A stretch of DNA of 64,000 nucleotides, from contig DATKDT010000073.1 in the NCBI GenBank assembly GCA_035512575.1, positions 1,519 through 65,518 on the forward strand, in the 5' to 3' direction. Source of the DNA: Vicinamibacterales bacterium. GTDB taxonomy: Bacteria; Acidobacteriota; Vicinamibacteria; Vicinamibacterales; SCN-69-37. Within the stretch, counting starts at the first letter, position 1; each line of letters opens with the position of its first letter. Under the pieces are notes generated by a model. The model saw nothing but the letters and a program-made list of their open reading frames with translations. It was not told where the DNA came from and did no database searches. The translations under genes were made by a program, and so were the position numbers. Of the stretch, positions 3,947 to 38,400 are shown in pieces.

Positions 3947-6118
<2,172 letters not shown>

Positions 6119-26469: not shown

Positions 26470-26541
26470 TAGCGGCGGCTCCTGGGGTGGCGGCCGCGAG
26501 GCGATCGGCGCAACGCCCTTCGGGCTCCGCTTCGACGTCCG

Positions 26542-26624
26542 GTAAAACGATGCTCCGGGCTAACGAATGCGCACGGCAGGGGCCCCGAGACCCTGCCGTG
26601 TGGCTGCCCTGCGCATCGTTTTAC
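26542..26624. repeat. ~83-nt hairpin element, copy 1
   Basis: Outer stem gtaaaacgatgc/gcatcgttttac. Inner stem cacggcaggg/ccctgccgtg around gccccgaga. Homologous to the reverse complement of 26759-26843. Confidence 0.75.
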
Positions 26625-26758
26625 GAACGTCTTGACGGACGTCTCAGAGTCGCCCTCAGAACGTTGCGCCGATCGCACAGCGGCCACGAGCGCAGCGAGC
26701 GCTTGCGGATGGCGCGACAACTGTGCCGCCCGACTTTGAGACAGGCCGCGGGTATCAC

Positions 26759-26843
26759 GAAAAACTGCGCGCAGGGGCATCCTCACGGCTGGGTCTCGGG
26801 GCCCCAGCCGTGCAAGCTCGCTAGCCCCGGAGCGCAGTTTTTC
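26759..26843. repeat. ~85-nt hairpin element, copy 2 (inverted relative to copy 1)
   Basis: Outer stem gaaaaactgcgc/gcgcagtttttc. Inner stem cacggctggg/cccagccgtg. Both stems differ from copy 1 by compensated substitutions. Confidence 0.75.
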
Positions 26844-37143: not shown

Positions 37144-38400
37144 ATGGCGCTGATTGGGCTCGGCGTCGGCGGCGGTATCGGCGCCTACAAGGCGCTCGAG
37201 GTCGCCCGCGGTCTGCAGAAGAACGGCCACGACGTGGTCGCGCTGCTGACGCGCAACGCCCGCCGGTTCATCACGCCGCTCACGTTCGAAGCCATCACGC
37301 ACCGCCCGGTGCTGATGAATCAGTTCGCCCCGGGCGTCAACACCGACATCGAGCACATCGCGGTCGCCAACGACATTGCGCTGCTCGTCGTGGCGCCGGC
37401 GACGGCCAACATCCTCGCCAAATTCGCGCATGGCATCGCCGACGACTACCTCTCGACGCTGTTCCTGGCCACACCGGCGCCCGTGCTGCTGGCGCCGGCG
37501 ATGAACACGCGGATGCTCGAGCATCCCGCCGTGCAGGAGAACGCGCGCATTCTCGCCGCGCGCGGCGTGCGGTTCGTCGATCCCGGCGCGGGATATCTGG
37601 CGTGCGGCTGGATCGGCAAGGGCCGGCTCGCCGAGCCTGCGGAGATCGTGGCCGCCGCCGAGGAGATGCTTGCCGCGAGACGCGACCCGGTTAGATTTCC
37701 CCGGTTCGACATGGCAGAAACGAACCGGGGAAATCTAACCGGGTCGCGTCTCGTCGTCACGGCGGGGCCGACGTTCGAGGACATAGACGCCGTGCGGTTT
37801 ATCGGCAATCGATCGAGCGGCCGGATGGGCTACGCGCTGGCGGCAGAGGCGTCGCGGCGCGGCGCGATGGTGTCGCTGATTTCGGGGCCGACGCATCTGC
37901 CGGCGCCGGAAGGCGTGAGCGTGGAGTCGGTGCGGAGCGCCGCCGAGATGCACGCGGCGGTGACGCGCGCGGCGGCCGGCGCCGACGCCGTCATCATGGC
38001 CGCTGCCGTCGCCGACTACGCGCCCGACGGAGGCGCGATCGGCACCAAGAAGGCGAAAGCCGAGGAGGCGTGGTCGCTGCGGCTGACGCGGACGCGCGAC
38101 ATTCTGGCGGAACTGGGCGCCGCGCGCAACGGCGGCCGGCCGGTGCTCGTGGGCTTCGCCGCCCAGACGGGCGACCCGGTGCCGGCGGCCGTGAAGAAGC
38201 TGGCGTCGAAGCATGCCGACCTGATCGTGGCCAACGACGTCTCGAAGCCGGGCTCTGGGTTCGACGTCGACACGAACGAAATCACCCTGGTCGACGCGCA
38301 CGGCGCCGAGCCGCTGCCGCTCATGTCGAAAGACGATGCCGCGGGCGCGATTCTGGATCGCGTGGCGCGCCTGCTCGCTGCTAAGATCGTCGCGCAGTGA
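37144..38400 (+). CDS. coaBC: bifunctional phosphopantothenoylcysteine decarboxylase / phosphopantothenate-cysteine ligase
   Basis: CoaC flavoprotein half ([14 protein letters not shown]..., PAMNTRM). CoaB half ([30 protein letters not shown]). A 26-codon palindromic insert lies in the interdomain linker. Confidence 0.9.
37676..37753. repeat. perfect 78-bp palindrome (33-bp arms, 12-nt spacer) inside coaBC reading frame
   Basis: 37676-37708 (cgagacgcgacccggttagatttccccggttcg) is the exact reverse complement of 37721-37753. The length is 26 codons with no stop. Confidence 0.95.

Follow-up and report, generated by a model that had tools for sequence, protein, structure and literature searches.

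The coaBC gene of a Vicinamibacterales bacterium (phylum Acidobacteriota; GenBank assembly GCA_035512575.1) carries, between the regions encoding the two halves of its product, a perfect 78-bp palindrome through which the reading frame stays open. The gene lies in a stretch of 64,000 nucleotides of contig DATKDT010000073.1 (positions 1,519 to 65,518 of the forward strand), which was analysed at its full length and is called the window here; coordinates given without a locus name refer to it. The palindrome is very probably a full-length member of a dispersed, non-autonomous family of hairpin repeats in the Vicinamibacterales, inserted in frame, old, and with a stem that is actively kept. The literature searched holds no account of such an element in Vicinamibacteria or Acidobacteria, and the family is classified here as previously undescribed, a new family of a known kind of element.

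The host gene is an open reading frame (ORF) of 418 codons on the + strand (37144..38400), encoding a bifunctional protein composed of a CoaC flavoprotein half and a CoaB ligase half. The Pfam families PF02441 and PF04127 are found in homologues of the protein, the best solved relative is M. smegmatis CoaBC, 6TGV (4.6e-65 over residues 4-412), and an exact look-up of the protein gave no identical record. A first-pass annotation, made from the letters alone, had described perfect 33-bp arms with a 12-nt spacer, an insert free of stops and in frame, a local dip in G+C content and an origin most unlikely to be due to chance, and all four descriptions hold. Positions 37676-37708 are exactly reverse-complementary to 37721-37753 (arms of 33 nt, 100% complementary) around the 12-nt loop ACATGGCAGAAA (37709..37720, + strand); the frame runs intact through the element (37676..37753), which codes for A178-L203; the local G+C content falls to 57.5%, against ~70% in the flanks; and in 64 kb of the window's composition chance would produce ~2.6e-12 perfect inverted repeats with 33-nt arms and a spacer of at most 40 nt. 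The hairpin is predicted to fold with -78.8 kcal/mol as RNA (z = -10.5) and with -50 kcal/mol as DNA (z = -11.0).

Each arm has an ordered internal structure. The left arm (+ strand) consists of an outer segment, CGAGACGCGA (37676..37685), a first box, CCCGGTT (37686..37692), a 7-nt variable segment that reads AGATTTC in the window (37693..37699), and a second CCCGGTT box (37700..37706). The right arm (37721..37753, + strand) returns these parts in mirrored order as CG, AACCGGG, GAAATCT, AACCGGG and TCGCGTCTCG, with R202 and L203 as its last codons.

The first clue to a family came from CoaBC relatives of 75-82% protein identity, which have different long palindromes at the same position of the linker. 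Comparison of the window with locus L004 revealed a common core, CCCGGTT-7 nt-CCCGG, and a scan with the four boxes fixed and the rest left free, over one genome per species (185,579 species), returned 32 loci. Four of these are unrelated chance matches. The other 28 lie on different contigs of two Vicinamibacterales metagenome-assembled genomes (MAGs), LC085 and LejiaD_66_45, many of them within genes. Family elements are ~55-85 bp long and follow the consensus CGAAATTCTn-CCCGGTT-GAwwwTy-CCCGGTT-loop-mirror: each arm has an outer segment of ~10 nt, then two CCCGGTT boxes held 7 nt apart by the variable segment, and a short loop joins the arms. The variable segment occurs in at least 10 variants, each complementary to its partner in the opposite arm. 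Several features common to the 28 copies were not imposed by the scan, namely the outer arm CGAAATTCTn, the fixed spacing, the TT after box 2 and, often, the loop motif GCAGAAAC.

A covariance model, R1, was trained on 31 copies with the window copy among them. It matches the window copy with 89 bits (E = 1.7e-25) over model positions 1-80 of 80, a score that is partly circular for a training member, and the next-best match in the window has only 13 bits. Outside the training set, R1 finds the coaBC-linker palindromes of loci L087 (56 bits), L006 (48 bits) and L005 (38 bits) and adds one further copy, L013:2218-2308. The membership of the window copy has support independent of R1, because the copies align, have boxes and loop motif in common, and share a peptide frame. 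The mirrored pairs of CCCGGTT boxes, 7 nt apart, at 37686-37706 and 37723-37743 are circular as evidence, being the search pattern itself. Three features that the pattern did not impose are: (i) the loop motif GCAGAAAC (37714-37721, + strand), found also in the loops of L012, L015 and L029 and of the orthologous coaBC copy L001, and inverted in L036; (ii) the peptide frame KF.PVDFPR...NRG.STG; and (iii) the outer arm, which matches the consensus CGAAATTCTA at 6 of 10 positions, every one of the four differences being mirrored in the right outer arm. A peptide-level search with a 105-residue composite of observed element peptides gave 12 word-sharing candidates, none of which scored, and Rfam returned only transfer RNAs at gathering thresholds and only matches to generic microRNA hairpin models, far below threshold, under permissive settings.

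A large share of the copies lie inside genes. Twenty MAG copies sit within long open frames with high third-position G+C (GC3) on either side, and at least 14 of the 29 MAG copies are in frame within Pfam-supported ORFs, the domains flanking the insert or extending across it. The 14 hosts are a DUF1800 protein, a carboxyltransferase (CT_C_D), two DcuC carriers, an M16 peptidase, a squalene/phytoene synthase (SQS_PSY), two gamma-glutamyltranspeptidases (GGT), two PMT_2-TPR glycosyltransferases, an SBP-permease fusion, cytochrome b, an aldehyde:ferredoxin oxidoreductase (AFOR) and LysE. One further copy forms the C-terminal tail of COX15, two are close to the 5' ends of truB and ybeY, and others fill tiny intergenic gaps (L018:4442-4519, L025:5898-5976, L037:2282-2362, L038:6100-6177 and L007:5508-5584), several of them overlapping the stop codon of the upstream ORF. 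The gap copies often overlap the 3' end of that ORF so as to give its last residues as well as its stop codon, and some repetitive extragenic palindromic (REP) sequences and Coxiella QMITE2 are likewise reported to supply gene-end residues and a stop codon.

The peptides encoded by the genic copies resemble one another. The commonest frame, KF(Y/F)PV(D/E)F(P/S)R…NRG(K)STG(K)NF, recurs among genic copies and in the window, and the L012 peptide, AAKFYPVDFPRLPVAETNRGKSTGKNFA, is comparable with the element peptide of CoaBC. Among copies outside supported genes, 14 of 22 arms have TAG as the triplet that follows the terminal box; of the 18 genic copies only 1 has it, and there the TAG falls outside the reading frame (Fisher P = 2e-4). 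The window copy reads TCG where the right arm of the family consensus has an in-frame TAG. The left-arm frame that contains a TGA (GGT TGA) is unused in the peptides. Assigning frames automatically by the longest spanning ORF fails for L031 at least; this leaves the TAG count unaffected, and the statement on the unused frame is based on peptides read from high-GC3 spanning frames instead. Because TAG is depleted in the genic copies and the TGA-containing frame is unused, the sequences indicate that in-frame stops have been purged and that genic copies must stay translatable.

The perfection of the arms had been read in the first-pass annotation as a possible mark of a recent event, and this is not supported. 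L001 (GCA_036374455.1), which was assembled independently and has a coaBC 90.1% identical in DNA sequence, carries the same insertion with four differences in the element: two in the loop, one C-to-T change that can still form a G-U pair, and one near the end of the stem. Diverged or decayed versions occupy the same coaBC site through the clade, down to 75% protein identity, and a recent insertion is thereby ruled out. In L004 the copy is full but differs in its variable segment and loop; the copies of L005, L006 and L087 have lost their tips, that of L087 being perfect over 26-nt arms; and L119, L120 and L121 have the right arm alone (GGAAATTCAACCGGGTTGAATTTCG in L120, and in L121 an arm identical to the right arm of L087). 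The decayed copies and L004 have a right junction in common, at which TTTCG is followed directly by CCGGnCGCCGC (CC GGn CGC CGC, read F-A-G-R-R).

On a quick neighbour-joining tree of CoaBC, built without support values, full, tip-deleted, solo-arm and empty states are interleaved, even among close sisters. The tree fits a single ancient insertion followed by repeated decay or recombination as well as it fits repeated site-specific insertion; the right junction in common is taken to favour the single insertion. Another possibility raised in the first-pass annotation, that orthologues across the phylum all carry a similar linker devoid of palindromic symmetry, does not describe the data: the relatives carry palindromes, and 78 more distant coaBC linkers (~60% identity) hold no perfect inverted repeat longer than 9 nt, so that the palindrome is a feature of the clade rather than of CoaBC linkers in general. 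A metagenome scan with the CoaBC protein yielded mostly relatives of ~60% identity, which serve as negative background, and one new copy, L087.

Active maintenance of the stem, the other reading offered for the perfect arms, is supported by the pattern of change in them. Of the arm cells in the 31 copies, 93% are paired, and double changes occur in 18 of the 33 pairs; none of 500 shuffles reached these values. The 7-nt variable segment (columns 19-25), which the search left free, has 40 doubly changed cells and 2 unpaired ones. Three host genes (DcuC, GGT and PMT-TPR) are orthologous between the two MAGs and have the element at the same site, with flanks ~80-85% identical. In these three pairs and the window/L001 pair together, 6 differences are mirrored, against ~0.6 expected if the arms were independent (P ~4e-5 at 15% divergence); mirroring applies to 4 of the 5 differences that fall in the variable segment. 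L036 exhibits two-sided remodelling of the same kind as the outer arm of the window copy. Between the window and L001, third-codon positions have changed at 0 of 26 sites inside the palindrome and at 94 of 393 (24%) outside it (P ~8e-4). The perfection of the arms is best explained by this keeping of the stem, not by a young insertion.

Arm-to-arm correction, by intrastrand template switching or by recombination in a hairpin or cruciform, is the favoured explanation of these mirrored changes; it would also flip the loop, and it may combine with selection on the hairpin. The loops of L012 (7745-7824) and L029 (6621-6700) agree at 15 of 20 positions when one is inverted and at 8 of 20 in direct orientation, which points to recombination between arms: either the spacer was inverted by such an exchange, or the same site received a second insertion in the opposite orientation.

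Two smaller observations concern the ends of the element. In the GGT copy of L036 (L036:6290-6373), the outer arm CGGGGATATTCAA, which is mirrored on either side, is similar to the inner segment found in the GAATATC subfamily, whereas the orthologous copy in L026 has an ordinary outer arm; this suggests inter-copy recombination or a nested copy. Tandem doubling of the element's outer end over 8-9 nt is seen at L023:4921-4940 (AGAATTTAG twice) and at L035:3325-3345 (CTGAAATT twice), and may reflect slippage at element ends.

The stem might instead be perfect through selection and not through mechanical correction, with the coaBC element, or the whole family, domesticated and kept by the host for its DNA or RNA hairpin or for the CCCGGTT boxes. 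The element might, for example, make translation pause where the two domains meet, offer a site for an RNase, for protein binding or for processing, or affect the stability of messenger RNA. This explanation is unlikely, and so, to the same degree, is its extension, by which the right arm was exapted as the start of the CoaB fold and the left arm was forced to mirror each protein-driven change. It accords with the unchanged third positions, with the fact that three of the four actual changes either fall in the loop or still allow a wobble pair in the + strand RNA, with the persistence across species of copies at orthologous sites with the inner stem intact, and with the strong covariation across copies. 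Genic copies also concentrate at domain boundaries and loops, but that location is equally expected from survivorship alone. The same element, moreover, occurs in more than 25 unrelated contexts, intergenic gaps and C-terminal tails included; many close relatives retain the gene with the coaBC element reduced to a solo arm or gone; a promoter and terminator scan gave no signal; and no Rfam family corresponds to it. Were it true, a bacterium would provide a case of joint selection on a protein sequence and a perfect 33-bp stem.

In L002 (protein 89% identical), the closest relative that lacks the element, the linker is 18 codons long (RGTGDRAAGVGMLAGRRI), and the 26 codons of the element take its place in the window, a net gain of 8; the element thus stands instead of the native linker and not in addition to it. 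In an AlphaFold2 model, the last CoaC helix spans residues 165-180, residues 181-201 are coil with a confidence score (pLDDT) of ~33-59, and the first strand of CoaB (beta-1) spans 202-207, so that the element-encoded linker is predicted to be disordered and R202 and L203 to begin beta-1. The first-pass annotation had placed 26 additional residues between two intact halves: the 26 in-frame codons stand, but compared with L002 the native linker is gone, and in the model the last codons of the element start the CoaB fold.

The end of the right arm is ambiguous in origin. It reads NLTGSRL in the window, where KSTG(K)NF stands in the family consensus and xLAGRR(V/I/L) is the native motif. Compared by eye, it matches the element consensus at 11 of 15 positions and native sequence at 9 of 15, so that the sequences do not separate the two origins. 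It is plausible that selection on the protein moved the right arm towards the native motif and that the left arm followed; alternatively, a deletion may have joined the element to native codons, after which the palindrome was re-extended.

Perfect palindromes are known to arise by template switching, and the whole palindrome could in principle be a de novo inverted duplication of the native linker and not a copy of a mobile element. The likeness of NLTGSRL to the native xLAGRR[VIL] and the departure of the outer 10 nt of each arm from the family consensus agree with such an origin, which is nevertheless very improbable. Both pairs of CCCGGTT boxes, their spacing, the loop motif GCAGAAAC and the peptide match at least 28 copies at unrelated loci, and relatives hold other variants of the same family at the coaBC site. 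At most the outer 10 nt could be local; for the core of the element, family membership effectively refutes a purely local origin. An assembly or foldback artefact, conceivable since the source is a MAG and chimeric reads can yield perfect palindromes, has next to no likelihood and was rejected because family members fill the coaBC site in NCBI, ENA, Logan and JGI assemblies, the gene is correctly in frame on both sides of the palindrome, the same element recurs with four substitutions in the independent assembly GCA_036374455.1, and the family occupies 28 other loci in two further MAGs.

Several points weigh against an old, mobile and actively kept family member as the whole account. The window holds a single copy of the palindromic element, and dispersal is demonstrated in related genomes, not in that of the window organism. 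The invariance of the boxes is partly imposed, since the search pattern demanded them. Mobility is inferred from dispersal alone, with no transposase, target-site duplication or parent element found. The patchy distribution on the tree makes one ancient insertion indistinguishable from repeated site-specific insertion. Among the differences between orthologues, 18 are unmirrored, mostly in the outer arm and beside the loop. Gene conversion alone would not slow substitution: as unbiased conversion has no such effect, the conserved third positions imply selection on the stem or sequence, or a recent exchange of the segment between lineages. The deviant outer arm of the window copy represents either mirrored substitutions or native sequence captured by extension of the palindrome. 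Translation of the insert, finally, is inferred from its open frame.

With these points in mind, the history of a family insertion at coaBC may be outlined as follows. An ancestor of the window clade would have received a copy of the element in the flexible linker between CoaC and CoaB, or copies would have landed there repeatedly; the inserted copy would have remained open in frame and been translated within CoaBC; and in the window lineage the native 18-codon linker would have been lost, leaving the element peptide as a mostly disordered tether whose last two codons start the first beta-strand of CoaB. The element probably moved as a single strand folded into a hairpin, handled by an enzyme that does not duplicate the target. 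The longest word shared by the 30-nt flanks of a copy averages 5.2 nt, against 5.0 nt in mismatched flank pairs, although duplications of 2-4 nt may escape this test, and no common target motif is evident in the flanks. Plasmids, phages and viral contigs gave no match to the element and no parent element. A regular-expression search of 345 kb for HUH, RAYT and IS200 motifs gave no match, in a sample too small to be conclusive.

Single-strand systems that recognise hairpins, of the RAYT (REP-associated tyrosine transposase) or IS200/IS605 type, do handle hairpins free of duplications (PMC3733652, PMC6006769), and by analogy a system of this kind may have moved the element. REP sequences and REPINs, which are tied to RAYTs (PMC3733652, PMC6006769), are like the present family in being short hairpin repeats (a REPIN consists of two inverted units forming one long hairpin), in leaving no target duplication, in having copies that overlap gene ends and give stop codons, and in occurring occasionally within genes. 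Unlike them, the Vicinamibacterales element has no GTAG or CGTC terminal tag (PMC3733652), its arms ending in CGAAATTCT (CGAGACGCG in the window); each arm is built from two boxes in direct orientation instead of being a small palindrome by itself; and at least half of the copies are genic, whereas REPs are mostly extragenic. For a link to RAYTs, the 345 kb without an HUH motif are too small a sample to conclude from. For palindrome-associated elements derived from IS200/IS605, the absence of duplications fits, the same 345 kb hold no TnpA motif, and no flanking motif common to the copies is evident.

In its working, the element is closest by analogy to the Rickettsia palindromic elements (RPE-1 to RPE-10; Ogata et al. 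2000, 2002), as far as these are summarised in PMC10969869 and PMC3733652. The first-pass annotation had named them as the nearest precedent for an insert tolerated in a linker, and a multi-copy family with many members in frame in unrelated genes bears this out. As in the RPE summaries, the family is dispersed and palindromic, a large share of its copies stand in frame in unrelated housekeeping genes that are left intact, the encoded peptide recurs, the positions are compatible with the protein fold, and no transposase is identified. In-frame genic copies are represented by 14 of the 29 MAG copies and by those at coaBC, and a linker position by residues 181-201 of the AlphaFold2 model, a low-confidence coil between the halves. 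In contrast with the RPEs of those summaries, hosted by reduced intracellular Alphaproteobacteria (Rickettsia) and roughly 100-150 bp long, the family belongs to free-living soil Acidobacteriota of ~69% G+C, measures 55-85 bp and has four CCCGGTT boxes; its solo-arm decay, loop inversion and mirrored arm evolution, documented here, are a further difference. Length and host thus set the element apart from the RPE families, a separation made without direct comparison to their consensus sequences, and it may be called RPE-like only by analogy, not a member of them.

Other coding palindromes provide partial parallels. Bacterial MITEs (miniature transposable elements with inverted repeats) such as Coxiella QMITE1/2 (PMC5896051) are also small and non-autonomous, with strong secondary structure, sometimes extend or interrupt ORFs in frame, and can supply C-terminal tails and stops; intragenic ERIC and Anabaena MITEs are mentioned in the account of PMC10969869 as further cases of in-frame fusion. 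Unlike classical MITEs, which have terminal inverted repeats, target-site duplications and a parent insertion sequence (IS), the present element is one hairpin over its entire length, with no duplication or parent detected. The coding palindromes of Nematomorpha mitochondria (PMC6649704) are likewise long perfect inverted repeats in functional genes, with both arms translated and stem and protein both kept, but they are mitochondrial, their arms code for conserved regions, and their description does not make them members of a single dispersed family that shares one sequence.

Protein-coding palindromic repeats have so far been treated as essentially a Rickettsia trait, tied to reductive intracellular genomes. 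A compact family with no shown sequence relation to RPEs does likewise in free-living, high-G+C soil Acidobacteriota, and its hosts include essential or housekeeping genes (coaBC, cytochrome b, GGT, transporters). Orthologous copies that survive across species provide a view of three processes: (i) the co-evolution of hairpin and reading frame, by mirrored substitutions, purging of stops and flipping of the loop; (ii) the decay of inserts, by tip deletions and reduction to solo arms; and (iii) the recruitment of element codons into the protein, to serve as a linker and to begin a beta-strand. Inserts of this kind make proteins look more diverged than they are and can mimic MAG assembly errors, and model R1 can be used to flag them.

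Two other insertions were noted in CoaBC homologues. A distant coaBC (L067:459-1790) has a 70-residue linker of EPAR(T/S)-like tandem repeats, an independent expansion of the same linker. In two members of the clade, P0025 and P0029 (alignment columns 67-76), the CoaC half has a 10-residue insert, SAAG(T/S)PSPRR, unlike the element peptide.

The window also contains inverted repeats of other kinds. An AT-rich palindromic repeat (AATTGTAAATCGTAAAT.GTAAATAGCAT…) occurs twice, at 60-194 and 3947-4056, with arms 52 nt long and 83% complementary in one copy and 36 nt long and 92% complementary in the other; each lies between genes, immediately upstream of an ORF start (ATG at 208 and at 4059). A relationship of these palindromes to the coaBC element was rejected, as they score 13 bits against R1. 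Two further inverted repeats lie near each other, at 26482-26695 and 26759-26843, with 68-nt arms that are 72% complementary and 20-nt arms that are 90% complementary.

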